DNA of 64,000 nt. Source: a virus. Location: IMG/VR virus record IMGVR_UViG_3300042391_001456, positions 38,754-102,753 of that record; one strand, 5' to 3'. Each line of letters starts with the position of its first letter. Within the stretch, counting starts at the first letter, position 1. The position numbers were made by a program, and so were the translations under genes. Below, piece after piece: positions 5,836 to 58,359 of the stretch. The notes under the pieces are model-generated. The model saw only the letters and a program-made list of their open reading frames with translations, did not search any database and had not been told where the DNA came from.

Positions 5836-5871
5836 AATTCTATATATTAAAAATTAATATATAGAATTATG
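5833..5871. promoter_or_regulatory. perfect 18-bp inverted repeat holding divergent late-promoter-like motifs and both start codons
   Basis: cataattctatatattaa-aaa-ttaatatatagaattatg. Confidence 0.8.
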
Positions 5872-7113
5872 GATATAATAAAATTTTCAAAATTTAACGA
5901 GAATGTTCAACTACCAGTTTTAGATATTGTTATTGATTCAAATGGTAAACTTTATAATGGTAGATTTGGAGACCTAATAAAGGGTAATGTTGTTATTAAA
6001 AAAGTAAAAGGTATAAATACCACAGTTGATATATTGGGTAGTGATAATAAGAGCTATGTTGCTGGTATAGATAAAAATGGATATTTAGTCGCGCCACCAT
6101 CTAATATAAAAGACGATTGTTTATTTGTAAATGGTGATTTTGTTAAAATACCTATAGATGTTTTAAATTCTATGAAGAAAAAAGATTCTATTTGGAGATT
6201 TGGTGTTGATTACACACAATTATTATCATCAGAATCTACTGGTTGGGTTAATGTTAAAATTGATATGGAGATCTTTAAAAGAGTTAAAAGATATTCATCT
6301 GGATTGGGCAGTGTTAAAAGAGGACACACAGCATTTATTTCAAAATTAGAGGATTTAAACTCTATTAACTTTATTAAAAAAAGAAAAAGAAGTATTAAAA
6401 GTATTCAAAGAGAAATGTCTGTTATAATGTTATTGCATTATATCGAAGAAATTAAAAGTTTTTTCACACCATCAGCAGCTGGATTTTTATTCGAATCTTT
6501 TATCGCTGGATTAATTCCAAATGCTAAAGTAATTAGTGATAATAGCGCAGCTGATATTGTTTCGGATGGTAGAGGTTATCAGGTTAAAACTTTAGATGCT
6601 CACAATAACCCAAGTGTTGAGTTTATTATGAGAGATATTGATGGTGTTAAACAATTTTTAGATCATTATGTTGTTTGTTTTAAGTATGCTGATAGAATAG
6701 AAATCTATGTATTGGATGGTGATGTCTCATCACCATCATATTGTGGTAATCTTTTGAAAAATAGTAAGACCTTTACAAAAGTTGATAAGAAAAATCAAGT
6801 AACAAAAATCTATAGAGAATCTTCATATTCTAGAATAAATACATCTAAAATTAATCCATATATTATTAATTTATTGGGAATTGATGAGAGTATTGATATT
6901 ATATCAATGGGTTTAAAAGAAACTTTAAATAAATTATATACCGAGTTATCATCATTTCAATATAACGTAGAAACTATTGTTGCTGGAGTTAATAAAGATG
7001 GTAAACTAATCGGAACAAATGAATTCGATGCTTATAGTAATTTGGCTAGAAAGAATGCTGAAATTATGAAAGGTGAGTTAGAAAACTTAATAAAACATTA
7101 CAAAAGAGATTAA
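5869..7113 (+). CDS. hypothetical protein with PD-(D/E)XK nuclease-like motif and CTS-like N-terminus
   Basis: GFLFESFIAGL ... ADIVSDGRGYQVKT; N-terminus MDIIKFSKFNEN. Confidence 0.55.
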   Translation: MDIIKFSKFNENVQLPVLDIVIDSNGKLYNGRFGDLIKGNVVIKKVKGINTTVDILGSDNKSYVAGIDKNGYLVAPPSNIKDDCLFVNGDFVKIPIDVLNSMKKKDSIWRFGVDYTQLLSSESTGWVNVKIDMEIFKRVKRYSSGLGSVKRGHTAFISKLEDLNSINFIKKRKRSIKSIQREMSVIMLLHYIEEIKSFFTPSAAGFLFESFIAGLIPNAKVISDNSAADIVSDGRGYQVKTLDAHNNPSVEFIMRDIDGVKQFLDHYVVCFKYADRIEIYVLDGDVSSPSYCGNLLKNSKTFTKVDKKNQVTKIYRESSYSRINTSKINPYIINLLGIDESIDIISMGLKETLNKLYTELSSFQYNVETIVAGVNKDGKLIGTNEFDAYSNLARKNAEIMKGELENLIKHYKRD

Positions 7114-7117
7114 AGTT

Positions 7118-7405
7118 ATGAAAATATTAAAATATTTAGATTTTATAAACGAATCGCTACCACGTCAACAATCAGTTGATCAGTTAAAACGTGTTATGAA
7201 ACAATCATCAAAAACTGATATTGGTAATAGAATTTCTGATATGAATAAACAGGGAGCTAATATACAATATATTCAAAATCCAATTGATAATGGCATCGAA
7301 TCTTTTGAGGATTGGCAAAAGCATAATAAGAAATTTGTTTCTTCTTGGAACTTAAAAGGAATGTTAGGACCATTTAAAGGTGAAGATAATAAGCAAAATA
7401 AATAA
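7118..7405 (+). CDS. small putative internal head protein
   Basis: N-terminus MKILKYLDFINES resembles the T4 capsid targeting sequence. Confidence 0.6.
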   Translation: MKILKYLDFINESLPRQQSVDQLKRVMKQSSKTDIGNRISDMNKQGANIQYIQNPIDNGIESFEDWQKHNKKFVSSWNLKGMLGPFKGEDNKQNK

Positions 7406-7407
7406 TT

Positions 7408-8148
7408 ATGATTTTTTTAAAAAAATATTCAAATTTTATGAATAATGGAATAATAATAGCCATTGGAGGTTCTGAAAATGTTGTAGATAATACTATTTTA
7501 TCAGAAGTTATAAAAAATTCAAAATTCAAAAAAAATTCAAAAATTATAATAATCCCAACTGCATCATCCCATCAAGATGATGTCGATGTTAAATATAAAA
7601 CAGCATTCGAGAAATTAGGGTGTAAGTATATAAAAACACTATTTATATCATCTAAGGATCAAGTTGATTCAGAAGATAATTTGAATCTATTAAAAGAATC
7701 TAATATCTTAATGTTTTCTGGTGGTGATCAATCTAGAATAAGTGAATGTTTTATAGGAACTAAATTTTTAGAAATTTTAATAAATAAATTTAATTCAGAT
7801 CATTTTGTTGTAGCTGGTACTTCAGCCGGTGCTATGTGTTTATCTAATAATATGATAACCGGTGGAGATAAAATTGTTAAATGTGGAGTGGGTTTATCAT
7901 TTATTCCGGAACTAATAATAGATACTCATTTTACGGAAAGAAATAGATTATCTAGATTATCTAATGCAATTTCAATCTATCCAAATAGAATTGGTGTTGG
8001 TTTATCTGAAGATACTGGAATTATTATAAAGAATAATGAAATAGAAGTTATTGGAACGGGTAGTGTTACTGTTTTTAATTTTGAGGATTTAAAAGAATTA
8101 AAATTTAAAGTTTTATATTCTGGTGATAAGTCAATTTTAAATAAATAA
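7408..8148 (+). CDS. cphB: cyanophycinase-like serine peptidase (S51)
   Basis: IAIGGSE, IIPTAS, FSGGDQSR, GTSAGAM (catalytic Ser), IDTHFTERNRLSRL, GVGLSEDTG. Confidence 0.88.
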   Translation: MIFLKKYSNFMNNGIIIAIGGSENVVDNTILSEVIKNSKFKKNSKIIIIPTASSHQDDVDVKYKTAFEKLGCKYIKTLFISSKDQVDSEDNLNLLKESNILMFSGGDQSRISECFIGTKFLEILINKFNSDHFVVAGTSAGAMCLSNNMITGGDKIVKCGVGLSFIPELIIDTHFTERNRLSRLSNAISIYPNRIGVGLSEDTGIIIKNNEIEVIGTGSVTVFNFEDLKELKFKVLYSGDKSILNK

Positions 8149-8275: not shown

Positions 8276-8599
8276 ATGAAATATTTAAAAACGTTTGAGA
8301 GTTATAGTGAGAAAGGTTTAGCTCAGGAAATTGCTGAAGACATTCTACCAAAACTACAAGAAATTAAAAAAGAGAAAGGTATTTTTACAGTAGGTATGTT
8401 TGATAACTACATGGAAGAAAGAAAAGGTGATATGAAATTAACTGACGAAGTTATGTCTGAATTAGTTAATATGGGATTTGATTTTGATTCTGGTGATGAT
8501 GATGATTTCTACTTTGTAGAAGATGACGAAGAAGGTGATGTTCCACCACCTCCTCCTGGCTTCGAAGGTTATCCAGGGATGGAATATAGTTTAAACTAA
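8276..8599 (+). CDS. acidic putative internal head protein
   Basis: N-terminus MKYLKTFESY; acidic, Pro-rich C-terminus. Confidence 0.6.
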   Translation: MKYLKTFESYSEKGLAQEIAEDILPKLQEIKKEKGIFTVGMFDNYMEERKGDMKLTDEVMSELVNMGFDFDSGDDDDFYFVEDDEEGDVPPPPPGFEGYPGMEYSLN

Positions 8600-8613: not shown

Positions 8614-8799
8614 GTGATGAAACATTTAAGAAAATTCAACGAAGCTGCTAAAGTTGAAAAAACATCTAAGAAAGATGAGATTGAAGACTTTATCAGTAAG
8701 AATAAGAAAAACAAATCTTCTTACGAAATGTATAAAGTATTAAGAGAAAAAGGTTATACTGAAGCCAATCTTAAAGATTATTTCTACGATAACTACTAA
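8614..8799 (+). CDS. small putative internal head protein
   Basis: N-terminus MKHLRKFNEA. Confidence 0.6.
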   Translation: MMKHLRKFNEAAKVEKTSKKDEIEDFISKNKKNKSSYEMYKVLREKGYTEANLKDYFYDNY

Positions 8800-12836: not shown

Positions 12837-14960
12837 ATGAAACCAGTTTTAATTGTAGAAAATTCGACTAATTCCTTAATTAAGGAATCTGTAGCTAAGA
12901 ACGATTATATATTAGGTGGTATTTTCACTGAATTCGGAGTTAAAAACCGTAATGAAAGAATTTACACAGCTGATAAATTTCTTCCAGCTTTACAGGAGAT
13001 GAATGAAAGAATGTCTGGATTAGGAGCCGTTTACGGTGAATTTGATCATCCAGATGTTTTTGATACTTCATTATCAAGAGCTTCTCACATAATTACAAAA
13101 GCTAATTATGTTCAGGAATCTAATCACGTTGCTGGTGAAATCAGATTATTAAGTACTTATTGGGGTAAAGAAGCTAAGGCGCTTGTCGATGACGGGTGTC
13201 CTGTTTTTGTTTCTTCTAGAGCAGCAGGTATTACTGAATCTGATGGATCAGTATCTCTTAAAAAATTATTTACTTATGATATCGTTGCTGACCCTGGATT
13301 TGCATCTGCAAAGATGAGTGTTAAGGTCTTAAATGAGTCATTAGGTTATGATAATCCACAATCTAACTTTAGGATATATGAAATGTCCGATGAGTCAAAA
13401 ATAAATGATCTATTTAACATGAATAAAAATGAATTTGTTACCAAGCAACAATTAACTGACTATTCTAAATATTTAGTTAATGAATTAGCTTCTACTAAAA
13501 AAGAAGTTAAAACTGCTATTTCTAAAGGTAATTTAACACCTAAGAAATTAGAGCAACTACTTGAGTATTATGATGAGTTAAATACTACTAATACACAAGT
13601 TGTTAAGTATTTAGATTATTTAGCTGAAAAAGTTCAAATTATGGTTAATGAGAATAAGTCTTTGAAAGAAACAACAGACAAACTTATTAAACACAATGAC
13701 TATTTAGCTGAAAATCTTGAAAAAGCTGTTAATTACTCTGAGTATTTAGCTGAAAATTTAGATAAGAATATTGCTTATTCTGAATATGTAGCTGAGAACT
13801 TAGATAAAAACATCTCTTATTCTGAGTATATCGCTGAGAACTTAGATAAAAATATTGCTTATTCTGAGTATATCGCTGAGAACTTAGATAAAAATATTGC
13901 TTATTCTGAGTATATCGCTGAGAACTTAGATAAAAATATTGCTTATTCTGAGTATATCGCTGAGAACTTAGATAAAAACATCGCTTATTCTGAGTATATC
14001 GCTGAGCACGTTGATAATAATATTGCGTATTCTGAATATTTAGCTGAGCACGTTGAGGGAAATATCGCTTATTCTGAGTATATCGCTGAGAATTTAGATG
14101 ATAACATCGCTTATTCTGAGTATATCGCTGAGAATTTAGATAAATCTATTTCTTACTCTGAAATGATTACTGAAACACTTAAGGGTGGTAAAGTATTCGA
14201 ATCATATGAAAATTTCCCAACATTACAAGATGCTGGAATTTCAGCAATTGAATCTGAAAAAGAAGAAGTTGAAGAAAGAGAAGAAGAAAGAGAAGATTTA
14301 GGTATCTCTCACATTTCAGACGAAAAAGAATATTACACAGAAGAAGAAAAAGAAGAAAATATTGAAAATTTAGAAGAAGAAAAAGAAGAAGAAGAAGATT
14401 GTACACCTGCTTATGAAGAAAAAACATTTAATGGTGATACTGATACTGAGCTGTCTTTATCTATCGATAAACTAATTGAGGAAGCTAAAAAACGTAAAGT
14501 TTCTGAAACATCAGATTTGAATTTCTTGAAATTCTTATCTAAATCACAAGTTGATAGTTTTTATGCATTAACTAATGAAGAGCAAGAAACTGTTAAACTT
14601 CACATAAACGAAAGAAGTTACTTCACAGGAAAAGAAGTTCTTACATTAATTTCTGAAGCACTATCAACTAAAAATGAAACTCTTGAAGAAAGAGTTATCA
14701 GAATGATGCCTGAAAACACTAAGGCTATCTGGAATCAGTTAAATGAATCTGCTAAAAAATCTTTCCTTTCACAGGCTAGATTATACCCAGAGGAAATGTT
14801 GATGACTGAATCACAAGTTGATCATTTCTGGGGAACTAGAAACATCAAAACAAATGAATCTGTAACTAAAAAATTAGTTTCTCATGATGCTTTAATTCAA
14901 GAAGATAAATTATCTGATAATGAAGTTAGTGCTATTATGGAAAGGTTCAAAAATATTTAA
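12837..14960 (+). CDS. prohead protease (gp21-like) fused to a scaffold/core domain
   Basis: KNRNERIY, GEFDHP, VSSRAAG, TYDIVADPGF in the N-terminal ~170 aa; long helical repeat and acidic region behind; directly upstream of the capsid gene. Confidence 0.88.
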   Translation: MKPVLIVENSTNSLIKESVAKNDYILGGIFTEFGVKNRNERIYTADKFLPALQEMNERMSGLGAVYGEFDHPDVFDTSLSRASHIITKANYVQESNHVAGEIRLLSTYWGKEAKALVDDGCPVFVSSRAAGITESDGSVSLKKLFTYDIVADPGFASAKMSVKVLNESLGYDNPQSNFRIYEMSDESKINDLFNMNKNEFVTKQQLTDYSKYLVNELASTKKEVKTAISKGNLTPKKLEQLLEYYDELNTTNTQVVKYLDYLAEKVQIMVNENKSLKETTDKLIKHNDYLAENLEKAVNYSEYLAENLDKNIAYSEYVAENLDKNISYSEYIAENLDKNIAYSEYIAENLDKNIAYSEYIAENLDKNIAYSEYIAENLDKNIAYSEYIAEHVDNNIAYSEYLAEHVEGNIAYSEYIAENLDDNIAYSEYIAENLDKSISYSEMITETLKGGKVFESYENFPTLQDAGISAIESEKEEVEEREEEREDLGISHISDEKEYYTEEEKEENIENLEEEKEEEEDCTPAYEEKTFNGDTDTELSLSIDKLIEEAKKRKVSETSDLNFLKFLSKSQVDSFYALTNEEQETVKLHINERSYFTGKEVLTLISEALSTKNETLEERVIRMMPENTKAIWNQLNESAKKSFLSQARLYPEEMLMTESQVDHFWGTRNIKTNESVTKKLVSHDALIQEDKLSDNEVSAIMERFKNI
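13734..14153 (+). repeat. 10 tandem 42-bp coding repeats (YSEYIAENLDKNIA)
   Basis: Visible at both DNA and protein level. Confidence 0.95.
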
Positions 14961-15044: not shown

Positions 15045-16736
15045 ATGTCACACATTAGAATAGACAATGCGAAAGCAACTAAGAAATGGGCTCCAGTTTT
15101 AGAAAACATGGGAGTAACTGGTGATAGAGTTGAATGGATGGCTGAATATGCTGAGTTTCACTCTATTAACGAAAATGCGTATGTAAACGCTGCAAACGTA
15201 GCAGGTATGGGAGCTATAACAGCTGCACAACCAGGATTATATGCTGGTACTACTACAACTGCTGCTCAAGGTACATATGGTCCTTTATCAGGTTCAGGAG
15301 ACGTAGGTCAAAACCTTTTACCAGTAGCTATGAAAATTGCTGCTCAAACAATCGGTTTAGATTTAGTAGCAGTTAAACCAACTCCAGGTCCGAAAATCGA
15401 TTTACTTTATGTAGATTTCGTTTATGATGACGTTGATCAATTACAAAACGAAAGACCACAAGTATTTAAATTAGCAAGTGTTAACGAAACTTTGGTAAAT
15501 AACTTAACTAATTTGGTTAAAGCTGAAGGTAGATTAGTAACTGGTGGTATCAGTGGTACTAGAGTTTTTGTTGGTATTACACAATCTAACGCATTTAGCG
15601 CAACTTCAGAATCTTCGTTCCCAGCAACTGGAAAAGCAGGTGTTGTTGAATTTTTAGGTTTCTCAAGAATTGATGGATATCCAATGTTTAAAGCTTATAG
15701 ACAAGCTAATACAGGTGGTCAATTTAACTACTTCTCATTTGATTCAAAATTAAATACATTTGACTCATCTAGTGCTATGTCTGCTCAGATTAAAACAATC
15801 GCTGGATATACTTTCTCAGCTGCTCCTTCAATTGAATTAGTATCTGCATTAGAAGATCATATCCCAGGTTTCTCTGCAAACTGGACAGGAGCAAAAGCAT
15901 CTGGTGATTATCCAATGGATCGTTACTCTGATGATACATCTTATTCAGGTGTTATCGGACCAAAAATCTCTTCTAAAACTATCGCAGTTGGTACTATCGA
16001 AGTATCTTCAGCTTTAAGAAGAACTGAAATCGAAGATATTAAAGCTAACACTGGTATGGATATCGTTCAAAAAATGGAATCTATCCTTGTTAATGAATTA
16101 TCTCAAACAATTTCTAAACAAATCGTTGCTAAGATTTTTGAAATGGGTGAATTAAACAGAAAAAGTAGTGCTCCTTTAAGATCAGGTGTTTCTTCTTTCG
16201 TTTCTGCTTCTGCTTCAACTATCTTTGACTTGAACACTAATTATGCGTCTACTTCAGTTTCTGGTGAAACTACTCACGCTGTTCAAAGAAAATTGATTAC
16301 TAAAATTGCACACGCTTCTAACTTCATCGCTACTGAAGGTCGTGTAGGACCAGCTCAATACATCATTACAAATGGAGGTTTAGCTGCAGCACTTCAAGAT
16401 ATCGCTGGTTATACTATTAACCCAGTTAAATCTAAATTAAACGGACAAGGTCAATTATACCCTGTAGGTTCAATCGGAGATATTTCTATCTATGTTGATC
16501 CATACATGAAGTATAATGATAACAGAATCGTTTTAGGAAGAAAAAACAACGCTGATCAACCAGGTATCATTTTCGTACCTTATTTAATGGCACAATCTAT
16601 CTCAGTTATTTCTGAAGCGACTTTCGCTCCAAGAATGTTACTAAGATCAAGATATGCAGTTGCTGAAGTTGGATGGTATCCACAAAAACAATTTATGACG
16701 ATTGTTGTTGAAGATGCAAATCAATTATTAAACTAA
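15045..16736 (+). CDS. major capsid protein, T4 gp23-like
   Basis: KKWAPVLE, LDLVAVKPTPGP, MDIVQKMESILVNEL, IYVDPY, GIIFVPY, ATFAPRMLLRSRY; codon usage typical of a highly expressed gene. Confidence 0.92.
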   Translation: MSHIRIDNAKATKKWAPVLENMGVTGDRVEWMAEYAEFHSINENAYVNAANVAGMGAITAAQPGLYAGTTTTAAQGTYGPLSGSGDVGQNLLPVAMKIAAQTIGLDLVAVKPTPGPKIDLLYVDFVYDDVDQLQNERPQVFKLASVNETLVNNLTNLVKAEGRLVTGGISGTRVFVGITQSNAFSATSESSFPATGKAGVVEFLGFSRIDGYPMFKAYRQANTGGQFNYFSFDSKLNTFDSSSAMSAQIKTIAGYTFSAAPSIELVSALEDHIPGFSANWTGAKASGDYPMDRYSDDTSYSGVIGPKISSKTIAVGTIEVSSALRRTEIEDIKANTGMDIVQKMESILVNELSQTISKQIVAKIFEMGELNRKSSAPLRSGVSSFVSASASTIFDLNTNYASTSVSGETTHAVQRKLITKIAHASNFIATEGRVGPAQYIITNGGLAAALQDIAGYTINPVKSKLNGQGQLYPVGSIGDISIYVDPYMKYNDNRIVLGRKNNADQPGIIFVPYLMAQSISVISEATFAPRMLLRSRYAVAEVGWYPQKQFMTIVVEDANQLLN

Positions 16737-17219: not shown

Positions 17220-17837
17220 ATGATTAAAAAATATATCGAATATATTAAAGAGAATGTTACACCCAAAAGTGATGTAGCTGAGCTCAATGGAAATGGACTA
17301 GATGTTAAACACAAAACATTAATTGATATTAATAATCCTGATATGAAATATGATATTTATTGGGGTAGAAATGCAAAAACTAATGATTATTTAACAACTA
17401 ATTTTTCTGGTAAATTTGCCAGACAAATTGGTGGTAATTTACCTAGTGAAAATGATATTTGGATGCATATAACAAGTTCTTTAAATAAAGAACATTTTTA
17501 TAAGACTAAATCTGGTGATGTTTTTGAGGGAGATAAACCTGAAAGAAGAGTTGTTGGAACACATTTAATAATAAAAACTCTGAAAGATGATAAAGTTCCA
17601 GAAAATATTATCTTACAATCTGCTGATATAGTTAGAAAAAATAGTCATTTAGAAATTATCACAGAAGAAGGAAAAAAGAGAATAGTTGCTACCGACTTAG
17701 AAAATTGTGATATAGTTTTTTGTAAAAAGAATTATGTTAGTAAAAAACCAGGTAGTGTATTAGGTCAAGTTCAAGTTGAACACTCAAACGCTAGATACAT
17801 TCAATATACAAAGGGAAATATAAATATTAAAAATTAA
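17220..17837 (+). CDS. hypothetical protein with CTS-like N-terminus
   Basis: MIKKYIEYIKEN. Confidence 0.6.
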   Translation: MIKKYIEYIKENVTPKSDVAELNGNGLDVKHKTLIDINNPDMKYDIYWGRNAKTNDYLTTNFSGKFARQIGGNLPSENDIWMHITSSLNKEHFYKTKSGDVFEGDKPERRVVGTHLIIKTLKDDKVPENIILQSADIVRKNSHLEIITEEGKKRIVATDLENCDIVFCKKNYVSKKPGSVLGQVQVEHSNARYIQYTKGNINIKN

Positions 17838-17863: not shown

Positions 17864-19699
17864 ATGGCAGAAGAAACAAATCTACCAAAAATAAAAATAT
17901 CTAAAGAATTAGCATCGGTATTACAAAAAACTGAAGACTTAGGTGATTATATCTCATTTGAAATAATTTGTATGGGTGATGATGATAGTGAGCATTTTAA
18001 TGGTTTAAAAATTACAGATGTGAATGTTTCAAAAAAAGATTTTTGTTTTGAAGTAACTACATTAGATGGTAAGAAAATGGATATGAAGTGTGGTAATTTC
18101 ATTAGATACTACTTTCATAACTATTTTACACCAAGTGATATTCAAAACTTCGTAAACCTTTATAATAAAGTTAAAAATGGTGAGTCAGTGGCTGATGAAA
18201 AAATTCCAATCAATGTTTCAAAGTTTGAATATAATCCGTTAGATCCGAGATCTACTTTTCTTTCACTTGTTACTAAAACATATCCACATGGACACGAAGA
18301 TGAAGTTCTTCAATTCTTACCACAATTGGATAAAGATATCGTTGGAAACTATTACAAAATAATTGGAGATAATCCAACAACAATGTTTACATGTCATTTA
18401 GATACTGCTGATAGAAAACAGGCTGTTACAAGACTTTATTCTATACAAGTTGATGATCAAGAACATATTGTTACCGATGGTACAACTGTATTAGGAGCTG
18501 ATGATAAATCAGGAACAACAGTTATGTTATATATGATGGCAAAAAATGTACCAGGTCTTTATTACTTCTTTATCGGAGAAGAAAGGGGTGGTATTGGATC
18601 TAGAGCTTTAGCTGATAAATATGATGAAGTTTCTTATTTAAAAAATATTAAAAGATGTGTTTCTTTTGATAGAAGAAAGACTATTTCAGTTATCACCTCA
18701 CAAGCAGGTGGTGTTTGTTGTTCTGATGAATTTGCAAATGCTCTTTGTGATGAGTATAATAAAAATGGATTAAATCTTAAACCAGACCCAACTGGAGTAT
18801 TTACTGATTCGGCTTCATTCATTGATGATATTTCAGAATGTACAAATGTTTCTGTTGGATATCTTAACGAACATACTGGTAAAGAAATTCAAAATATGGA
18901 TTATTTAATAGATTTATGTAAAGCATCTGTTAATGTTAATTGGGATTCATTACCAACTGTTAGAACTGTTCAAGATAGAGCAGCTATGAAAGAAATGATT
19001 AATAGAGTAAAATCTTCAAATAAAGAATTTGTTGATTCGTTAAAAGGTGTTAATTTGGATAAAACTATTTCCACAGATTATGGAAATGTATATGTTAATT
19101 TTGATTTAGATAATGAGTCTCTTGATAACATCATTGAAAGTTTAACAGAGTTGAGAAAGGTAATGAGATTACACAAAAAGCCAGCTTCTTGTTTATTCGA
19201 TGAAACTTATTTACAAATATTTTTAGGTAAAGAAAGTGGTCAAAAAATAACAACACTTGATATTGAAGATGATGATAAATATGAGTCTCAAAAATTAAAA
19301 AAATATGAACAATTTTTAACTGAAAAATACTGGGATGATGAAGATGGTCAAGATGAAGATGAAGAAGATAACGATAAAGAACAAGATATAGAACATCTTA
19401 AATATCTTTTAAGGCAAATGTTGACTAAAGCAGGTATTAAGAATTCTACAATAACTAATAATGGATTGAATTTAAAAATTCAAATTATTCCACCATCGTA
19501 TGGGATGATTGACTATTTTTATAAATTAGATGATATTATACACATCTATGAAACAATTAAAAAGTTTGATAAAGATATTTTAGTTGATTTTGATTTAGAG
19601 TGTGATATTTGGGAAACTAAAAAAATAGAACCTCTTTTAATTTTCAATTTCTATTCTAACCAAGATGATTATGAAGATGAATCTGGTTTACCATTTTAA
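17864..19699 (+). CDS. M20/M28-like zinc peptidase with N- and C-terminal extensions
   Basis: CHLDT, LGADDKSG, GEERG, SFDR, TDSA, GY.NEHT. Confidence 0.8.
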   Translation: MAEETNLPKIKISKELASVLQKTEDLGDYISFEIICMGDDDSEHFNGLKITDVNVSKKDFCFEVTTLDGKKMDMKCGNFIRYYFHNYFTPSDIQNFVNLYNKVKNGESVADEKIPINVSKFEYNPLDPRSTFLSLVTKTYPHGHEDEVLQFLPQLDKDIVGNYYKIIGDNPTTMFTCHLDTADRKQAVTRLYSIQVDDQEHIVTDGTTVLGADDKSGTTVMLYMMAKNVPGLYYFFIGEERGGIGSRALADKYDEVSYLKNIKRCVSFDRRKTISVITSQAGGVCCSDEFANALCDEYNKNGLNLKPDPTGVFTDSASFIDDISECTNVSVGYLNEHTGKEIQNMDYLIDLCKASVNVNWDSLPTVRTVQDRAAMKEMINRVKSSNKEFVDSLKGVNLDKTISTDYGNVYVNFDLDNESLDNIIESLTELRKVMRLHKKPASCLFDETYLQIFLGKESGQKITTLDIEDDDKYESQKLKKYEQFLTEKYWDDEDGQDEDEEDNDKEQDIEHLKYLLRQMLTKAGIKNSTITNNGLNLKIQIIPPSYGMIDYFYKLDDIIHIYETIKKFDKDILVDFDLECDIWETKKIEPLLIFNFYSNQDDYEDESGLPF

Positions 19700-21726: not shown

Positions 21727-22416
21727 ATGTATAGTGATTTAATAAAAGGAGTTAATGAATTATTAAGTATTGATACAAGAGACTTTTTAATTTTAGATGA
21801 TACTATAACATCTAATAAGAATACTGTAAGTATTTCTGTTCATCTCACAGCAAACGATTCAAATATAGAACAATTTGTTAGTCATGTTAAATATGAAGTT
21901 TTTAGAACTTTATATAAGTACATCTTTAAACAGATGAAATTTAATAATAAATTTATTGATTTGAGAAATCTTAAATTTACTGAGAAATTAAATAGGACTA
22001 GTTTATTTTTATCTCAATTTAAATATAAAAACATATTGAGTAATAGTAGAATATCGACTGAACTACAAGATTCATTATCTTTTCATTTTTCTAAAATGAA
22101 ACCAAATACATCCAGTGATATTTATGAAATAGGTAAGTATTTAGATTTTGAAGCTTATGTTGATCCATATCTTAGATATAGTGATGAAGAGATTTATTTA
22201 TTTAATGATATACGATTTAATATAAATAACTTTCAATATGATGTTATCAGTGAAGCAACTTTTACACCAAGATTGATGATTACTTATGATTTTTATTTTG
22301 AAATATTTGATAATGAAATAGTTTATATCATAGATGATGAGTTTCAAAAATCATTACCAATTCTATTATCTCAAATTAGAGACGAAAAAATAGATAAACT
22401 TATAAATGGCAATTAA
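21727..22416 (+). CDS. degenerate major-capsid-protein paralogue fragment with C-terminal RDEKIDKLI tag
   Basis: YVDPYLRYSD and ISEATFTPRLMI match the MCP segments YVDPYMKYND and ISEATFAPRMLL. Confidence 0.7.
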   Translation: MYSDLIKGVNELLSIDTRDFLILDDTITSNKNTVSISVHLTANDSNIEQFVSHVKYEVFRTLYKYIFKQMKFNNKFIDLRNLKFTEKLNRTSLFLSQFKYKNILSNSRISTELQDSLSFHFSKMKPNTSSDIYEIGKYLDFEAYVDPYLRYSDEEIYLFNDIRFNINNFQYDVISEATFTPRLMITYDFYFEIFDNEIVYIIDDEFQKSLPILLSQIRDEKIDKLINGN

Positions 22417-22666
22417 TCCACCAAATCCATTTCTTGTTAATTCATCGACTAATCAGTCAATTCCACTTCTTATCAATTCATCGACTGGTGAATCGGCACT
22501 TATAGTTGACTCGGATGGTAATGTTATAGTTAAGAAATTAGTTTTATTGGATGATAAAACTGGAAAGAAATGGGAGGTAAAAATTTCTGATGGTGAAATT
22601 TACATGGAGCCTCTTGAAAAATCTGATAAAAGAGATTTTAAAATAAAAAAGATTTTAAATGACTAA
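22406..22666 (+). CDS. hypothetical protein with C-terminal RDFKIKKIL tag
   Basis: 86 aa; overlaps both neighbours. Confidence 0.6.
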   Translation: MAINPPNPFLVNSSTNQSIPLLINSSTGESALIVDSDGNVIVKKLVLLDDKTGKKWEVKISDGEIYMEPLEKSDKRDFKIKKILND

Positions 22667-23015: not shown

Positions 23016-23287
23016 TATCTTAATTTGTTAGTCCAATTACCAATTTTCCTTTGGGTAGTTAAATCTTTCATAGCTCCAAAATTAGCTGTTGGTTTATTCC
23101 AATCTATTAGTTTTCCATTCATGTGTGTTAACATAGGATCAGTACCTCTATATAAATCCATTACTTTTCTATTAGCATCATCTATATCATCTGCTTCAAT
23201 TTCTACCACTTCATCATTTTTATTTAGAAGAGTGTAAGTATAAGTATTTGACTCATTAAAATTAGTCCAATTTTTAATTTTATTCAT
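23015..23287 (-). CDS. small putative internal head protein
   Basis: Probable start MNKIKNWTNFNES (CTS-like). Confidence 0.55.
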   Translation of the reverse strand: MNKIKNWTNFNESNTYTYTLLNKNDEVVEIEADDIDDANRKVMDLYRGTDPMLTHMNGKLIDWNKPTANFGAMKDLTTQRKIGNWTNKLR

Positions 23288-25285: not shown

Positions 25286-26035
25286 TTATTCAAATTGTTT
25301 ATCATAGGATTTGTTTTTCATTTCAACAACTTTATCAACATACCCATTTCTTCTAAGAAGTTTAAAAACTAAATTACCAATTGAAAATTCACCACTTTCA
25401 CTTTCTAATCCACTTTTTCTAGACTCTTTAATTTTCTTCCAAGCTTTATCAATTTTCTCTTTAAATTTAGCATAATCTTCTTCCATATCCAACTCATCAA
25501 TTGATGACATGATTGTTTCCGCTTTCATTCTGATGAGTTTTTCATCTGGTTCAAATTCTATCTTTTGTGGTTTTTTTATCCACTCATCATGTAGAAGTGA
25601 ATAAACACCACCCATTCTACCAGCACTAATACTTTTTTGTAAGTCTTCACTATCTTGTATAGCAACTTCTACATCATATCCCTTTATTTTGATATCATGT
25701 TGTGAGTTCCATAGTTTTTTTGCATAATCACACAATTTCTCGGATATTTCAGAATTATCATCTATATCACTAAAATTAACAATGATATGCAAATCATAAT
25801 CTGAATATTTTTCAGACCAGTTATAATTACAAAGAGATCCACAAAGAACTATATCAATTATATCAGTTTTAATATCTGTTCCCTCAAAGAAATCTGTTCC
25901 TATTTTTAGGAGTTTTTCTCTAATATCATCATTTAAATCAAACTCATCCCAAACCTTGTCGTTAAGTTTATCTTTTAAATAGAAAGATTTAATTGGTTCA
26001 AAATCATCTTGTACAAATTCAAAATATTTTTTCAT
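25286..26035 (-). CDS. polymerase-beta-superfamily nucleotidyltransferase
   Basis: GSLCNYNWSEKYSDYDLHI (GS...DxD) and YDVEV; N-terminus MKKYFEFVQD. Confidence 0.75.
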   Translation of the reverse strand: MKKYFEFVQDDFEPIKSFYLKDKLNDKVWDEFDLNDDIREKLLKIGTDFFEGTDIKTDIIDIVLCGSLCNYNWSEKYSDYDLHIIVNFSDIDDNSEISEKLCDYAKKLWNSQHDIKIKGYDVEVAIQDSEDLQKSISAGRMGGVYSLLHDEWIKKPQKIEFEPDEKLIRMKAETIMSSIDELDMEEDYAKFKEKIDKAWKKIKESRKSGLESESGEFSIGNLVFKLLRRNGYVDKVVEMKNKSYDKQFE

Positions 26036-42275: not shown

Positions 42276-42789
42276 TTATTTCACTGGAACTCCAAATGAT
42301 GTTTCAAATTCGGTTTCTAAAATTACTAAGTTTTTAGAACTTGATGGTTGGAATTCTATTCTATTTTGTAGAGAAAATTCTAATATAAAACATCAAATGC
42401 CTAATAATTTTATTTTTAAAAATCTGGAACATTTTAGAGAATTAGTTAGTGAACCAGGAAATTTATTCAGATGTAATCTAATAGTATTAGATTTATGGGG
42501 ATTTAATTTAATAGAAATTGATAAATTTAAATGCATTTGTGATGATTTAAATATTAAACTAATAATATTAGCAAAGGAATTCAATTATAAAACTAGTGAC
42601 GATGTTTCTGACTACCATGTTATAACTAAATATAATCATGGTATAACACCAACATCATTATCATTCCCAATAAAATCAGAGACTATAATAACCGAAAGAA
42701 TAAGTAATTGGACATCCACTTTAGATGATTTGAAGAAATCTTATATTAGAGACAAGAAAATAGATATTCTTTTTGATGATGATGAATAA
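42253..42789 (+). CDS. hypothetical protein, possibly a degenerate DnaB/RecA-like fragment, with C-terminal RDKKIDILF tag
   Basis: NLIVLD...ICDDLNIKLIILA resembles DnaB DLIIVD...LAKELNIPVI; no intact Walker A. Confidence 0.5.
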   Translation: MITLKKYNYFTGTPNDVSNSVSKITKFLELDGWNSILFCRENSNIKHQMPNNFIFKNLEHFRELVSEPGNLFRCNLIVLDLWGFNLIEIDKFKCICDDLNIKLIILAKEFNYKTSDDVSDYHVITKYNHGITPTSLSFPIKSETIITERISNWTSTLDDLKKSYIRDKKIDILFDDDE

Positions 42790-45625: not shown

Positions 45626-45856
45626 ATGTTAGAAGAAATAAAACAATTAAATATTAATGAAGAAATTCTAAAGAATTATGATATCAAATCTATACAGGTT
45701 ATGAGTGATGGTAACCTTGAACCAGCTATACATATTCTTTTTAACAACGGTATTATATTAAATTCAAATATTCATAGATATGAAATTATTGAACTAATAT
45801 CTTCTATAAAGAGTGATGGTCGTAACGATAAAATTAATAAAATTTTAAATGTATAA
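45626..45856 (+). CDS. hypothetical protein with C-terminal RNDKINKIL tag
   Basis: 76 aa. Confidence 0.55.
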   Translation: MLEEIKQLNINEEILKNYDIKSIQVMSDGNLEPAIHILFNNGIILNSNIHRYEIIELISSIKSDGRNDKINKILNV

Positions 45857-47159: not shown

Positions 47160-47490
47160 TTTAGACTTATTAGAGTGTTGTCAATCTGTATTAAACTATC
47201 TTCAAGATAAAGATGAAGAATTAATTAATTTTACTGAATCAGAAACTATGAAAGAGATGGATAGAGTTCTTGTAAAAAATAATTTCGAATCATCTGTATT
47301 TGGCACGAACATGATGAATTTCATGCGTTGGTTATCAAATGAATATAATTTTGATAGTCCTGATATTTATGATGACGGTCGTTCTTATTTTTCAGATGGT
47401 TTCAAATTTACAAAGGCTCCTGCAAAAACTTTTCTGAAAGCCGTCATAAGAGAGATAAAAATAAAAGAATTGTTATGCCAGAAGGGGTAG
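47152..47490 (+). CDS. hypothetical protein with C-terminal REIKIKELL tag
   Basis: 112 aa. Confidence 0.55.
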   Translation: MDNLDLLECCQSVLNYLQDKDEELINFTESETMKEMDRVLVKNNFESSVFGTNMMNFMRWLSNEYNFDSPDIYDDGRSYFSDGFKFTKAPAKTFLKAVIREIKIKELLCQKG

Positions 47491-51497: not shown

Positions 51498-51636
51498 TTA
51501 AACTATATATAGTTAACCCACTCAAATTTATTTTAGTGGGTTTTTCATTTTAAAAACATTTCAAATTCAAATTTACCACAATACATTAACTTTTTTAGTT
51601 ATGTTTTATATAACATGGTATAAAAATTATAATAAT

Positions 51637-53169
51637 ATGCTGATCGAAACACAATATTTAACAAATACCAAAAAATTAGTATGTAGTTACGTAGATAAAT
51701 CTGGTGAAATTAAGATGAAATATTATGATTGGGACAATCCAATGAAATATGTTACATGTGAAGATAATGATATACTTAAACATCCAACATTTAAATCTTG
51801 GGATGGTAAATCAGTTAAACAAGTTCAAGTTGAGAGACCAGACAGATATGCAATCTATGAATATTTAGATGCTCTTCCTGAAGAAGAACAGGAGGAACTT
51901 TTCGAGTTTAATTTACCAAAAATATACTTTATAGATATCGAAACTGAAATTGTTGATGGTTTCCCCGAAGCTGCCGATGTTAAAGATTCTGAAGGTAACG
52001 TCAAAAAAGAAGGAGCTGCAACACAAGTACTTTCAATATCAATAGTTTATGACGATAAGATTATACTTTTGGGATTGAAAGATATGCCAGATGATATGCA
52101 GGATAGGATTAGAGTTAATACAAATGAGTATTTTAAAAAATTCGGATCAGATTATAAGTTTAAATATGTTAAGTATGAGGATGAGTTTGATATGCTTTAT
52201 GCCTTTTTCTATAAAATGATACCAAAAATGCCATTAATAACCGGTTGGAACTTCCTTAACTATGACTGGTTATATTTAGTTAATCGTTCTAGAAAGATTT
52301 CAAAATGGATGAATGGTAGAGAGTATAAAATAGATCCATCAGTTTCATCACCACTTAAAAGATTGAATAAAATGTGGGGAACTGAATTTGAAGTTCCATC
52401 TCATAGAATGATATTTGATTACATGCAATTATATGAGATTTGTGATACTTCTATTAAAGTTAAAGAGTCTTCCTCTTTGGACTTTGTTTCACAAAAATTA
52501 GTAGGCGTTGATAAAATCAAGTATACTGGATCATTACAAAAACTATACGAAGATGATTTCGAAACATTCATGTATTATAACGCTGTCGATAGTGTCTTAG
52601 TTCAAAAAATACATGAAGCTAGAAATTATATTTCAATTGTTTATGCGATTTCATCATTATCCAGAATTAGAATTGTCGATGTTGTTTCTCAAATGAATAA
52701 TGCTTTAGCATCTTTAGCTATCACAGAGGGTGTATTAAGAAACCGATTTAGAAAACAAGATAATATTGTACTCTTTAAAGATGAAAATAGAGATAATAGT
52801 GGTGAGTCAACTATTGCTGGTGGATGGGTAAAAGATCCTGTTGTTGGAATGAACCGATATGTTTGTACATATGACTTTGCCTCGTTGTATCCTACGACTC
52901 AGTTACAATTCTTTATTGCTCCAGAAACCTTTGTAGGTATTCAAAATCCAAATAGAAAAACTCATTGTGATAATGGTAGAGAGATAGATTATGATAAACA
53001 TGTACTTTGTGTGAATGGTGTGGTTTTTGAAAAAAGATTATCACCAACATTGAGAATGTTGGAGGATGTTTATGCTGATAGAAAAAAGAATAAAAAAATA
53101 ATGATGAGTAAAAAAGAGGAATTAAAAGTTGTTATGGATAGAATAAAAGAGTTGGAATCGGAAATATAA
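51637..53169 (+). CDS. DNA polymerase family B, N-terminal part (exonuclease plus motif A); split gene
   Basis: FIDIETE, TGWNFLNYDW, SLDFVS, YNAVD, GGWVKDP, YDFASLYP; ends before KxxxNSxYG and DTDS. Confidence 0.88.
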   Translation: MLIETQYLTNTKKLVCSYVDKSGEIKMKYYDWDNPMKYVTCEDNDILKHPTFKSWDGKSVKQVQVERPDRYAIYEYLDALPEEEQEELFEFNLPKIYFIDIETEIVDGFPEAADVKDSEGNVKKEGAATQVLSISIVYDDKIILLGLKDMPDDMQDRIRVNTNEYFKKFGSDYKFKYVKYEDEFDMLYAFFYKMIPKMPLITGWNFLNYDWLYLVNRSRKISKWMNGREYKIDPSVSSPLKRLNKMWGTEFEVPSHRMIFDYMQLYEICDTSIKVKESSSLDFVSQKLVGVDKIKYTGSLQKLYEDDFETFMYYNAVDSVLVQKIHEARNYISIVYAISSLSRIRIVDVVSQMNNALASLAITEGVLRNRFRKQDNIVLFKDENRDNSGESTIAGGWVKDPVVGMNRYVCTYDFASLYPTTQLQFFIAPETFVGIQNPNRKTHCDNGREIDYDKHVLCVNGVVFEKRLSPTLRMLEDVYADRKKNKKIMMSKKEELKVVMDRIKELESEI

Positions 53170-53790: not shown

Positions 53791-53963
53791 TCTTCAAATA
53801 ATTGATCAATCATCGATTTAAAACTATATCCGAATTTTTCAACACATAGTTTATGAATTTCATCAGAAAACTCATATCCTTCGTGTATCAATTTCTCTAC
53901 ATATTCTTCTACATCTTCAATTGTTGTGTAGATATTAAATTCATCGTAATCAAGTAAGTGCAT
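53787..53963 (-). CDS. 58 aa small protein (not in ORF track)
   Basis: MHLLDYDEFNIYTTIEDVEEYVEKLIHEG...IDQLFED; TAATATATA upstream. Confidence 0.55.
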   Translation of the reverse strand: MHLLDYDEFNIYTTIEDVEEYVEKLIHEGYEFSDEIHKLCVEKFGYSFKSMIDQLFED

Positions 53964-55798: not shown

Positions 55799-56443
55799 TT
55801 ATTTTTTACTTTTTTTTTCAATAGCTTTTCTTAAAGCTTCAGGTAACTTCTTTTGTGCAGCTGTTAAACCTTTGCTACCCTTTTCTTCTTTTTTATCATC
55901 CTTTTTAGATTTTTTATCATCCTCTTTATCATCCTCTTCTTTATCATCCTCTTTCGATTTCTTTCCAGATTTTTTATCTAAATAAGCTTGTAGACCAGCA
56001 GGTATTTTCTTTTTCTCATTGAAAGTTTTAAATGATTCAACAAAAGATGTTTCATCTGTTTCACCACCTTCTAATCCTTCTTCTTCTTCGTCACAAGTAT
56101 GACAATCAGAATCTTCACTCTCTTCTGAATCATTACCTGAAAAATCATCCTCCTCTACTTCGTTGAACTCTTCTTCATGTGAAAAATCACCTTTTTCTTC
56201 ATCATGACCTTCTCCACCAAAATCAAAATCATCAAATGAACTGATTCTTGATGATCCTAAAGATGAACTTTCTTCATCTCCCCAATTTTCTTCTTCATGT
56301 GAAAAATCACCTTCTTCTTCATCATGACCTTCTTCTTCATCAAAATAGAAATCGCCTTCTTCTTCATCACCTGTGAAGATATCATCTCTTTCGATTTCTT
56401 CTTCTTGACCGAAGAATTCGTTAATCTTTTTAATAAATTTCAT
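55799..56443 (-). CDS. highly charged low-complexity putative internal head protein
   Basis: MKFIKKINEF; acidic N-half, Lys-rich C-half. Confidence 0.65.
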   Translation of the reverse strand: MKFIKKINEFFGQEEEIERDDIFTGDEEEGDFYFDEEEGHDEEEGDFSHEEENWGDEESSSLGSSRISSFDDFDFGGEGHDEEKGDFSHEEEFNEVEEDDFSGNDSEESEDSDCHTCDEEEEGLEGGETDETSFVESFKTFNEKKKIPAGLQAYLDKKSGKKSKEDDKEEDDKEDDKKSKKDDKKEEKGSKGLTAAQKKLPEALRKAIEKKSKK

Positions 56444-56514
56444 ATTCTTTACTATTATTTTTAATATATATATTAAATAAAAAAATCACTTTTTTCACTT
56501 TTTATATATAGATT

Positions 56515-57549
56515 ATGAAATTATTAAAATATTTAGAATTTATCACCGAAGAGGCTGGTATTAAAGGACTTTTTAAACTATCTAGAGAAGTAAAACATAA
56601 ATTAGAGAAGATTATAGATCAATTTAATGATCCTATCGCTGAATCTATTTTAGACTTAGATAGAAGTCAACAGGATATAACATATATTAATATAACTGAT
56701 AAGAAAGATAAAGCTTCTTATTTAGATGTATCAAAAGCCAATTACTTTTTTGAAAAATGGAAAGGTGAGAAAGTTAATAGTAATGACTTTATAAGAATTT
56801 ATAATCTACAACCTGAAGATCCATCAGTACTATCCAATACTTATCATAATCATAAGGTTTCATTTACTGAAATATCAATTGGTAGATTGGCTAAAAAACT
56901 CTTATTAGATAAATTTAAAGATCATCAATTATCAACTTTTGTTGAGAGATGGATATCTACATCTAGTAGTGGTAGATTTGAGATATGGGAAAGAGATAAA
57001 GTTTATAAAGCTTATACAAGTTCTAACTATGAAGAATATTCAGGATCAAGTTTAGATCATTCTTGTATGAATGACGACACATCTGTTAATTTTTACAGAG
57101 CTTGTCCAGATGTTAAAATATTAACACTTTTAGATGATAATGATGCGATCAAAGCTAGATGTTTACTTTGGGTAGATATAAATGGTAAAAAAATAATGGA
57201 TAGAGTTTATTATAATACAGCATCTGATTATTATCAATTTGTTAAATGGGGTAATGAGAATGGATATTATATAAGAAATTCAAAAGCTGGTAAATCATCT
57301 TCTTTTTTATTTAATGGTAGTGAAGTTAAATTACAAACAAAAGTTAAATTTCCAAAAATTGAAGATTATAGAAATGAATATTTTCCATTTGTAGATACTT
57401 TTTGTTATTATAAAGACGGATTTGGTATGAACTATCAACCAGAAGAACCAGGTACTTACTATAAATTACAGGAAACTGATGGTACTATTGAAGAACTTTA
57501 TAACATTGATCCTAAACAAAGAGACATGTCAGATAATGAAAATTGGTAA
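56515..57549 (+). CDS. hypothetical protein with CTS-like N-terminus (SCM...ARCLLW...MDRVY domain)
   Basis: MKLLKYLEFITEE. Confidence 0.6.
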   Translation: MKLLKYLEFITEEAGIKGLFKLSREVKHKLEKIIDQFNDPIAESILDLDRSQQDITYINITDKKDKASYLDVSKANYFFEKWKGEKVNSNDFIRIYNLQPEDPSVLSNTYHNHKVSFTEISIGRLAKKLLLDKFKDHQLSTFVERWISTSSSGRFEIWERDKVYKAYTSSNYEEYSGSSLDHSCMNDDTSVNFYRACPDVKILTLLDDNDAIKARCLLWVDINGKKIMDRVYYNTASDYYQFVKWGNENGYYIRNSKAGKSSSFLFNGSEVKLQTKVKFPKIEDYRNEYFPFVDTFCYYKDGFGMNYQPEEPGTYYKLQETDGTIEELYNIDPKQRDMSDNENW

Positions 57550-57564
57550 TTAATATATAAGATT

Positions 57565-58359
57565 ATGGAAATAAAAAAATATGATAAGTTTGTTTTACAA
57601 ACAGAGATGATTGAGTATTTTATTAATGACTTTAATACTCAGATATTAACTGAATCGAAAGAGGAATCTGAATCAATATTAAAAAAAATAATATCTGATT
57701 TAAATCTTAATTTTAGATTAGTTGGAACATTTGGATTTGGCATTGGTGCTTTTTTACCAATTGTTAATCAATTAATGAAAAATATGAATCTATCTTCAGT
57801 TGAATTAACAAAAGAAACCATAGTCCTTTTAACACTAACTGCTATTTCAATTATATTTTTGGAAGAAAAAAAACCTAAAGATCCTCAAGAAGAATCTGAA
57901 TTAATAAAAGATTCCAAATCAATGTTAGAAGAGTTGAGAATGAAGGGTATTGGAGATGGTATTGTTAAAAAAGTAATTAAATGTCTAAAATCAACAAAAA
58001 ATGTATTTAAAATAATTGGTAAACATTTAGGTGCTGTTGTTGGTGGATTTATGGATATGTTTGCTTATTCATCAATGATGGTTCCTATAATGAGTACTTT
58101 ATCAAATGTTGTAAATAAATTCGATTTAAATCTAGATACAATGCCTCAAAACTTTCTTATGTTAACTGCTGGTGTTACTACTATAGTTGCTAAGCATGGT
58201 ATTTCATATCTTTTGAGAAAATTGAAAGGCAAGTTAAATATTTCTGATAAAGTAGAGAAAGAAATAGAAAATGAGATAGAGACACCTACAATTACTAAAA
58301 TTGCTAGATTTGGAGACGGTGACTCTAATCAATCTGGTGAATTAATCAAGGAACAATAA
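57565..58359 (+). CDS. hypothetical protein with hydrophobic helices and CTS-like N-terminus
   Basis: MEIKKYDKFV; TAATATATA 5 nt before the ATG. Confidence 0.6.
   Translation: MEIKKYDKFVLQTEMIEYFINDFNTQILTESKEESESILKKIISDLNLNFRLVGTFGFGIGAFLPIVNQLMKNMNLSSVELTKETIVLLTLTAISIIFLEEKKPKDPQEESELIKDSKSMLEELRMKGIGDGIVKKVIKCLKSTKNVFKIIGKHLGAVVGGFMDMFAYSSMMVPIMSTLSNVVNKFDLNLDTMPQNFLMLTAGVTTIVAKHGISYLLRKLKGKLNISDKVEKEIENEIETPTITKIARFGDGDSNQSGELIKEQ

Follow-up and report, generated by a model that had tools for sequence, protein, structure and literature searches.

The 64-kb window analysed here, i.e. the whole stretch comprising bases 38754-102753 of a 102.7-kb IMG/VR virus fragment with an estimated completeness of 18%, encodes a number of phage proteins which start with variants of one and the same short peptide. 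This tag of 8-14 residues is carried by approximately 12-13% of genes (about one in eight). It is a portable N-terminal add-on to unrelated proteins that is missing from their cellular homologues, and it represents an amino-acid-level signal rather than a nucleotide-level signal or the hallmark of a gene family. Because the window also encodes a head protease of the T4 type in fusion with a scaffold whose units resemble the capsid-targeting sequence (CTS) of phage T4, the tag is probably an address label for the capsid. On balance, we favour a model in which it acts as portable address and propeptide of a T4-type head-assembly pathway. We are more confident of capsid targeting for a minority form of the tag that is CTS-like in sequence than for the majority form, since the latter is divergent from the T4 CTS.

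Among public records the phage is most closely related to LR745206 (634 kb) and LR756502 (642 kb), both of which represent uncultured 'huge phages'. Farther off are LR756504, LR756501 and LR756500, followed by the Lak phages and then by jumbo phages that infect Bacteroidota, e.g. Tenacibaculum phage PTm1. The gene set used for counting comprised 121 genes of the window's own contig and 947 genes of LR745206 (1068 in total). The strict pattern M[KR]x[LIVFM][KR]x[FYW][ENDSQ]x[FYWH] opens 7 of the 121 contig genes (0.008 expected) and 18 of the 947 genes in LR745206 (0.05 expected), with expectations derived from internal positions and within-protein shuffles (range 0.005-0.05). A gapped hidden Markov model (HMM) used with a cut-off of at least 8 bits recognized 136 of the 1068 N-termini as compared with 2.2 expected from internal Met-started segments that served as control. 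A first-pass annotation of this DNA had pointed to a recurring N-terminal motif, and motif discovery on N-termini thus confirmed an enrichment far above chance. By means of an iterated weight matrix about 100 tagged genes were found in LR745206. A degenerate DNA pattern for just one tag subtype retrieved 58 IMG/VR stretches from contigs of 5-640 kb, and near these independent seeds there were 93 additional tags among 718 open reading frames (ORFs), where 3 would be expected. The clearest copies are found immediately upstream of the window, where the products of five genes arranged in tandem start with MKYVRTFESY, MKYLKLFEGF, MKHLKLFENF, MKFIKLFENF, and MRYLKTFESH. HMM matches at 36929, 42253 and 11407 are probable false positives; orthologues of the first two retain the N-terminus as part of a domain and do not display tag features. 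A literature search retrieved studies on the T4 CTS and on propeptides of giant phages but nothing describing the tags reported here; it gave no virion proteomics for MA9V, PTm1, pT24 or PAU either. Several small ORFs near the capsid gene of Prevotella phage Lak-B5 exhibit a different N-terminal pattern that ends with L-x-E-[SN] (KKKLYES, RPLSEN, KRALNEN), which may be a clade-specific counterpart of the tag.

Synonymous codons at conserved tag positions follow genome-wide usage (AAA:AAG, 59:24 vs. 62.6:20.4 expected), Leu being specified by both TTR and CTN and Ser by both TCN and AGY codons, while specific residues (Tyr or His at position 3, Leu4, Phe7 and Glu) are kept. This combination indicates that selection acts on the peptide. 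After removal of their first 14 residues, 106 tagged proteins fell into 90 BLAST components, which supports a shared tag on otherwise unrelated proteins. Only about 6 of 97 tagged LR745206 proteins contain a Pfam domain (two NUDIX proteins, an M15 peptidase, a methyltransferase, a Zn protease and a DUF6576 protein), and none of them belongs to a replication or shell family. Untagged in the window are gp32, DNA polymerase B, the helicases, ribonucleotide reductase (RNR), ThyA, Dam, the glycosyltransferases, the capsid protein and the tail fibre. The cyanophycinase-like enzyme encoded at 7408 illustrates the add-on character of the tag. Its Pfam Peptidase_S51 domain begins at residue 16 and leaves the tag outside, and in an AlphaFold2 model of mean predicted local distance difference test (pLDDT) score 90.7, residues 1-11 remain below 50. 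Homologues from Flavobacteriaceae that are about 45% identical are tag-free and begin with M(I)KGTLIPIGG, whereas phage homologues place MIYLEKYSDF, MKHLKTYKIFES plus a linker, or MRHIKPYRLYES ahead of the same strand. Moreover, the tag state varies between orthologues by swaps, gains and losses; the products of gene 7118 and its LR745206 orthologue, for example, carry different tag forms.

Tags occur in two forms. The majority form conforms to MK[YH][LI]Kx[FY](N)E[SN], with MKYLKxYK[LI]FES as a subtype, and the minority form to M(I)KK[YW]xQFI[NK]E[SE], as exemplified by MIKKYLDFIKES, MIKKWTQFINES and MRLKKYNQFIKES. In the window the minority form is represented by MIKKYIEYIKE (17220) and by the hybrids MKILKYLDFINE (7118) and MKLLKYLEFITE (56515). 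The CTS of T4 reads MKTYQEFIAE (PMC8442874). In the T4 internal protein IPIII, Tyr and Phe at CTS positions 4 and 7 are targeting determinants and Ile and Glu at positions 8 and 10 processing determinants, and Asp at position 10 blocks cleavage but leaves targeting intact (PMC9026906; see also PMC3012670). All four determinants are retained in the minority form. When YQEFIAE was used as an a-priori query, 15 N-termini reached a BLOSUM score of at least 20 (1.2 expected). The pattern [FYW]..[FYW][ILVM].E, shared by the T4 CTS and the T4 gp23 site FGSFLTE↓A (the arrow marks the cut), was present in 31 N-termini (4.3 expected), and in 14 if a small residue after Glu was demanded (0.8 expected), i.e. 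it is enriched 7-17 times. The majority form MKYLKxF(N)ES cannot be called a T4 CTS by sequence because the T4 CTS has no significant match to the majority weight matrix (PWM; score -28) or to the HMM (3.5 bits). Hence, the earlier description of the tag as T4 CTS-like holds for the minority form (about 30 tags) and was rejected for the majority form. In the model that we favour, the majority form would have arisen by divergence, and hybrids such as MKILKYLDFINE would connect it to the minority form.

The machinery on which a CTS depends is encoded on the same contig: a gp23-type major capsid protein, a gp21-family protease and, upstream of the window, a gp20-type portal (Pfam Portal_T4, E 3.1e-57). 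The protease is part of a 707-aa protein in which a gp21-type protease domain (residues ~1-200) is followed by helical repeats, an acidic stretch and a conserved C-terminal domain. Its match to Pfam Peptidase_S77 (E 3.4e-5, 23.8 bits) is slightly below the 27-bit cut-off, and a search of the PDB with the single sequence gave no match. By contrast, a profile of six orthologues matched T4 gp21 (PDB 5JBL) with an E value of 3.8e-8, with GE.DHP and SSR..G aligned. His71 (GEFDHPD) and Ser126/127 (FVSSRAAG) are invariant in the six orthologues. The repeat region (residues ~285-446) consists of 11-12 tandem 14-residue units of the consensus NIAYSEYIAENLDK, and Tandem Repeats Finder reported a period of 42 nt with 10.2 copies at 13733-14161. 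The core of the unit, Y-S-E-Y-I-A-E, resembles the Y-Q-E-F-I-A-E of the T4 CTS including the I-x-E cleavage site, and the region contains 11 matches to the T4-derived pattern described above. In the AlphaFold2 model it forms a single uninterrupted helix some 215 residues long (pLDDT of blocks mostly 83-95). At the protein level the repeats have been retained in LR745206, LR756504 and LR756501; they are degenerate in LR756500 and weak in PTm1, whose corresponding fusion gene is annotated as 'prohead core scaffolding protein and protease'. Elsewhere in the genome repeated tag-like units were not found.

The capsid protein possesses an N-terminal propeptide-like region with KKWAPVLE (NKWKPLLE in T4) and EYAEFHSINE↓N, the latter being its predicted maturation site. 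The motif WM(S/A)EYAE[FYM]H..(I/M/Y).E↓N is kept in five relatives, and the PTm1 version reads WMSEMLTINE↓N. In LR745206, a 157-aa ORF (291407-291880) contains a copy of the capsid propeptide and N-arm (KKWAPIIESMG, then WMSHYAEMHSINE↓N and LLPIAKKIAAQTVGL) ahead of an unrelated basic tail; it may encode a minor head protein which has borrowed the address of the capsid protein.

The tags themselves end in a manner reminiscent of gp21-type processing sites. Glu is present at positions 8-16 in 98% of them, and in 96 of 106 it first occurs at position 8, 9 or 11. The residue next to this first Glu is Ser in 45 tags, Asn in 21, Ala in 9 and Gly in 6 (81 of 106 altogether), and P3 is hydrophobic in 78. 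[LIVFM]-x-E occurs in 73% of tags but in 25% of untagged N-termini, and the strict version [LI]-x-E in 42% vs. 17%. The tripeptides that end the tags are also found in T4 gp22 and gp68, which hold LFE↓S, IFE↓S, LAE↓N, and INE↓N. Three comparisons of orthologues revealed Glu-ended junctions that are preserved exactly at domain borders while the parts upstream differ. FINE↓SLPRQQ of the 7118 product corresponds to NINE↓SLPRQQ inside a longer, tagged LR745206 orthologue. Likewise, MINE↓NKMWYK (9995) has its counterpart in SINE↓NKMWYK; the latter is preceded by a tagged N-terminal domain that contains two H-x-T motifs and, by eye, resembles LigT. Finally, TFNE↓KKKIP (55799) and VVE↓KKKMN both separate an acidic pro-region from a basic C-terminal domain.

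Taking into account these features we propose, as the most economical reading and a refinement of the first-pass interpretation, that during prohead assembly the short amphipathic tag would dock on the core formed by the helical scaffold, in the manner of the T4 CTS, and that the docked protein would then be enclosed by the shell. The protease would cut after the conserved Glu, i.e. after hydrophobic-x-E and before Ser, Asn or Ala; MKYLKTFESYSEK, MKILKYLDFINESLP and the scaffold unit NIAYSEYIAENLDK are candidate substrates. The same type of cut would dice the scaffold into 14-residue peptides and trim the capsid protein at INE↓N. Mature cargo would remain in the head and may enter the host together with the DNA.

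Tagged genes tend to be preceded by a promoter-like element. TAATATAT is present within 70 nt upstream of 44% of tagged but only 14% of untagged genes (a threefold difference), typically at a distance of 13-14 or 25-33 nt from the ATG. The genes for RNR, an exonuclease and the tail fibre are preceded by it as well, and near-matches are located before the capsid and protease genes. The TAATATATA element that, according to the first-pass annotation, most tagged genes follow is not specific to them, and TAATATAT looks like a general phage promoter element that is enriched ahead of tagged genes. With this distribution it was of no use as a timing clue by which early and late genes might be told apart. 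A TTAATATATA element is found 13-14 nt before many starts (e.g. 5855, 9982, 16856, 26048 on the minus strand, 30252 on the minus strand, 39682 and 57551) and stands back to back between divergent genes at 5849/5855 and 56462/56475. Given this short distance, the respective mRNAs would be near-leaderless.

A second motif marks another group of proteins at the opposite end. R[DNE]xK[IL]xx[ILV][ILVF], ending no more than 8 residues from the stop, is present in 76 of the 1068 genes (about 7%) with 0.7 expected; about 70 of them are in LR745206. IRDEKIDKLI and KRDFKIKKIL are examples. The carriers are small (median, 111 aa), and synonymous codons match genome usage, in line with amino-acid-level selection. 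The two tags are found together on only one protein where 9.7 would be expected, in agreement with the earlier statement that the N-terminal tag and an RxxKI tag are nearly mutually exclusive. RxxKI is a C-terminal motif; at N-termini, literal RxxKI showed no enrichment (8 vs. 11 expected).

Several observations weigh against the capsid-targeting model. The phage is uncultivated and the case was built from sequence. More than 120 tagged genes per genome would be an unprecedented packaged set. In cultured jumbo phage PTm1, which possesses the protease-scaffold fusion, no tags were seen in 50 kb of genome. Apart from the scores given above, the majority form departs from the T4 CTS by the spacing of its aromatic residues, which occupy positions 3 and 7 or positions 7 and 10. 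In addition, the residue three places ahead of Glu is not hydrophobic in the MKYLKTFES subtype. Individual variants deviate at the conserved Glu: the 7408 tag is without Glu, and the 26035 tag and that of its orthologue have Asp or Ser in its place. The M15 peptidase and an RNase T-like exonuclease are tagged in LR745206 and untagged in the window phage. TAATATATA is common to non-structural genes and is thus no sign of late co-expression with head genes.

Some of these points would be accommodated if the tag were a genuine portable label for a destination other than the capsid, such as a phage or host hub, a site within the infected cell, or a pathway of regulated proteolysis or activation. 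In that case, its resemblance to the scaffold unit and to the T4 CTS would be no more than that of common short amphipathic helices ending in Glu. The failure of the majority form in the comparison with the T4 CTS, a tagged fraction of 12-13% that is far beyond any known packaged set, and the promoter-like element common to tagged and replication genes all fit this idea. So does the mutually exclusive C-terminal tag on a further 7% of genes, as it hints at general sorting to two or more destinations. We nevertheless consider it unlikely, though by no means far-fetched, because no repeated tag-like units were found outside the head scaffold, the minority form keeps the four T4 CTS determinants, the Glu-ended junctions match gp21-type sites, and no alternative hub was identified. 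A model without any sorting appears improbable. According to it the N-terminus would go back to a small number of protein families, made up of small members, that have expanded enormously and diverge rapidly; 5'-end recombination would have spread it further, and the AU-rich, Lys-rich start may be kept for translation initiation in a Shine-Dalgarno-poor host. It is true that many tagged proteins are small ORFans in tandem arrays, some of which share a weak downstream D-x-F-x-E-L-x-D-x-G-F motif, and that tag codons are AU-rich and the host probably belongs to the Bacteroidota. Yet synonymous codons are used as in the rest of the genome while specific residues are kept, the capsid protein is untagged although highly expressed, and 106 tagged proteins make up as many as 90 BLAST components. 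Moreover, the tag sits on unrelated folds (S51, M15, NUDIX, methyltransferase, membrane proteins) and was added to an enzyme whose cellular homologues are devoid of it. A mere product of chance and composition is vanishingly improbable. The window has a GC content of 27%, MK starts are frequent, and Lys, Phe, Tyr, Asn, Glu and Ile are common residues, but shuffles and internal controls allow for 0.005-0.05 matches where 7 and 18 were observed, the HMM count exceeds its expectation by far (136 vs. 2.2), and the tag was replicated in 58 independent loci, by which this explanation is already refuted.

The features located in the window are compiled in Table 1. All 16 peptides quoted in the first-pass annotation were present where indicated, those at 23287, 26035, 53963 and 56443 being on the minus strand. 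When its 13 N-terminal examples were graded by HMM, six turned out to be robust, two likely and four borderline, and one (30724) was left without support.

Table 1. Tags, C-terminal motifs and head genes in the window.
Feature	Position (nt)	Strand	Remarks
Borderline tag MDIIKFSKFNE	5869..5901	+	414-aa protein; HMM 3.1 bits
Tag MKILKYLDFINE, hybrid of majority prefix MKxLK and CTS-like core YxxFIxE	7118..7153	+	95-aa protein; HMM 15.0 bits; robust
Variant tag MIFLKKYSNFMNN, without Glu	7408..7446	+	Peptidase_S51/cyanophycinase-like; HMM 7.1 bits; likely
Canonical majority tag MKYLKTFESYSE	8276..8311	+	107-aa protein; PWM 25.9, HMM 22.5 bits; robust
Majority tag MKHLRKFNEA	8617..8646	+	60-aa protein; HMM 16.7 bits; robust
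Head-maturation protease fused to scaffold	12837..14960	+	707 aa; PHROG 207 head maturation protease, E 7.5e-24
Tandem 14-residue units, consensus NIAYSEYIAENLDK	13689..14174	+	11-12 units; residues ~285-446 of the 707-aa protein
gp23-type major capsid protein	15045..16736	+	Pfam Gp23, E 2.2e-28
Propeptide-like segment EYAEFHSINE↓N of capsid protein (predicted maturation site)	15144..15173	+	
CTS-like tag MIKKYIEYIKE	17220..17252	+	205-aa protein; HMM 9.0 bits; fits T4-derived pattern; robust
Internal KLKKYEQFLTE	19292..19324	+	Residues 477-487 of 611-aa M28-like peptidase (17864-19699); PHROG 4191 peptidase, E 1.3e-62
C-terminal motif	22375..22404	+	
C-terminal motif	22628..22657	+	
Borderline tag MNKIKNWTNFNE at internal ATG of TTG-started ORF	23252..23287	-	HMM 5.1 bits
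Variant tag MKKYFEFVQD, terminal Glu replaced by Asp	26006..26035	-	249-aa protein; HMM 6.7 bits; likely
VFKFEDFL	30724		HMM <2 bits; unsupported
C-terminal motif	42745..42774	+	
C-terminal motif	45818..45847	+	
C-terminal motif	47446..47475	+	
Borderline tag MHLLDYDEFN	53934..53963	-	58-aa protein; HMM 5.2 bits
Degenerate tag MKFIKKINEFFG	56408..56443	-	214-aa protein; HMM 9.1 bits; robust
Tag MKLLKYLEFITE, hybrid/CTS-like	56515..56550	+	344-aa protein; HMM 15.5 bits; fits T4-derived pattern; robust
Borderline tag MEIKKYDKFVLQTE	57565..57606	+	264-aa protein; HMM 5.1 bits

Orthologues add to the assessment of individual tags. The LR745206 orthologue of the 8276 gene carries the same tag, and the gene quoted at 8614 has its true start at the ATG at 8617. 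The gene at 17220 is the second one downstream of the capsid gene, after 16869-17204, and its syntenic orthologue begins with MIKKYKLFKE. In the 214-aa product of the gene at 56443 the degenerate tag is followed by a long acidic region, TFNE↓KKKIP and a basic C-terminal domain; its syntenic orthologue has a canonical MKYLKKFENF start. The orthologue of the 26035 product carries MKLNKFYEFVQS. Among the borderline cases, 5869 and 57565 are better supported because their LR745206 homologues also open with tag-like peptides. These are MNIKKFENFSE in the case of 5869, with the remaining homology only from residue 121, and MKIQRYQEYENYDE in that of 57565, followed by long hydrophobic stretches suggestive, by eye, of a membrane protein. 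Two functional labels attached earlier to genes of the window found no support: a family search with the 'nuclease-like' protein (5869) gave no match, and the only match of the 'nucleotidyltransferase' (25286) was a PHROG of unknown function. A tagged gene just upstream of the window, taken tentatively for an isochorismatase, was without Pfam support for this guess.

Internal copies of the tag had been reported for three genes. Those in 10756 and 55799 are too weak to be judged. The copy in the peptidase encoded at 17864 was substantiated by comparison with LR745206, where a 452-aa peptidase ORF is directly followed by a separate 169-aa ORF that begins with MKINKYKKFLEKD. Since the same module N-terminus opens a separate ORF there, KLKKYEQFLTE appears to be the former N-terminal tag of the C-terminal module. 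The 17864-19699 ORF reflects either a gene fusion in the window phage or a split in LR745206.

Beyond tags and head genes, the window encodes proteins for replication and nucleotide metabolism (gp32, a DNA polymerase B fragment, DnaB-like and XPD-like helicases, both RNR subunits, ThyA, Dam and Fpg). There are, in addition, genes for glycosyltransferases, a CorA transporter and a tail fibre. The ORF for the DNA polymerase of family B (51601-53169, plus strand) comprises 522 aa, which cover the exonuclease domain and the start of the polymerase domain, and its LR745206 copy 513 aa; both being short, they suggest that the polymerase is split. Auxiliary genes that are unusual in phages include those for the CorA Mg2+ transporter (4849-5835, minus strand; Pfam E 1.4e-63), the S51 peptidase (7408-8148, plus strand), a NADAR domain protein (20190-20714, plus strand), and a gamma-glutamyl cyclotransferase-like protein (16869-17204, plus strand) whose gene separates the capsid gene from a tagged one. 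Large glycosyltransferase and FkbM-methyltransferase genes are clustered on the minus strand at 31406-36858 and 40256-41804, in the part of the window with the lowest GC content (22-25%). A 490-nt spacer at 19700-20200 contains unusually GC-rich segments and a terminator-like hairpin at ~20170-20200; searches of this spacer for tRNAs and for Rfam families at threshold were empty, its folding z-score was -1.9, and nothing but the hairpin emerged. Since the cyanophycinase has its closest homologues in Flavobacteriaceae, the phage probably infects a bacterium of the phylum Bacteroidota.

The T4 CTS system shares with the tags described here an extreme N-terminal peptide of about 10 residues that is common to unrelated, fast-evolving proteins and, for most tags, ends with hydrophobic-x-Glu plus a small residue, in a genome that encodes portal, protease and capsid proteins of the gp20, gp21 and gp23 type. 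T4, however, tags only a handful of proteins, which are small and basic, as compared with more than 120 genes per genome here, whose products include enzymes and membrane proteins. Likewise, the scaffold of the window resembles the T4 scaffold core (gp22, gp67 and gp68, with gp21 sites of the type (L/I)-x-E) in being helical and acidic, rich in Leu/Ile-x-Glu and encoded beside protease and capsid genes, and it is predicted to be diced into short peptides as well; it differs by its fusion to the C-terminus of the protease and by the regular array of 11-12 CTS-like 14-residue units. In the giant phages phiKZ, 201phi2-1 and SPN3US, propeptides of head and ejection proteins are cut after Glu by a gp21-like protease, and paralogues of head-internal proteins share N-termini (PMC5694885). 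Unlike the tag, these propeptides mostly comprise 100-160 residues, are cut at (S/A/G)-x-E and have no short sequence in common, and only 8-19 proteins are processed.

Cargo-loading peptides of encapsulins are short terminal peptides on diverse proteins which bind to the interior of an HK97-fold shell. The C-terminal RDxKIxxIL motif is likewise short, terminal and attached to diverse proteins, and it bears no sequence likeness to these peptides. It is tempting to speculate, albeit with considerable doubt, that phages of this clade sort about one fifth of their proteome by two orthogonal terminal codes, the N-terminal CTS-like tag (about 13%) and the C-terminal R-[DN]-x-K-I-x-x-[IL]-[IL] motif (about 7%). 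Proteins with the N-terminal tag might dock on the tandem-unit scaffold and be cut by the head protease, and those of the C-terminal set might be directed elsewhere, perhaps to the shell interior. If this tentative scheme were true, the set of packaged or injected proteins of an uncultivated virus could be read from its sequence.

If the N-terminal tag works as in T4, more than 100 packaged and possibly injected proteins per genome would be predictable from sequence alone. The underlying principle would be a simple one, namely that tags on the cargo imitate the unit repeated in the scaffold, and tag, scaffold unit and protease together would constitute a compact toolkit for loading foreign proteins into large capsids. 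The largest known phages would then possess a very large arsenal of early-acting effectors.

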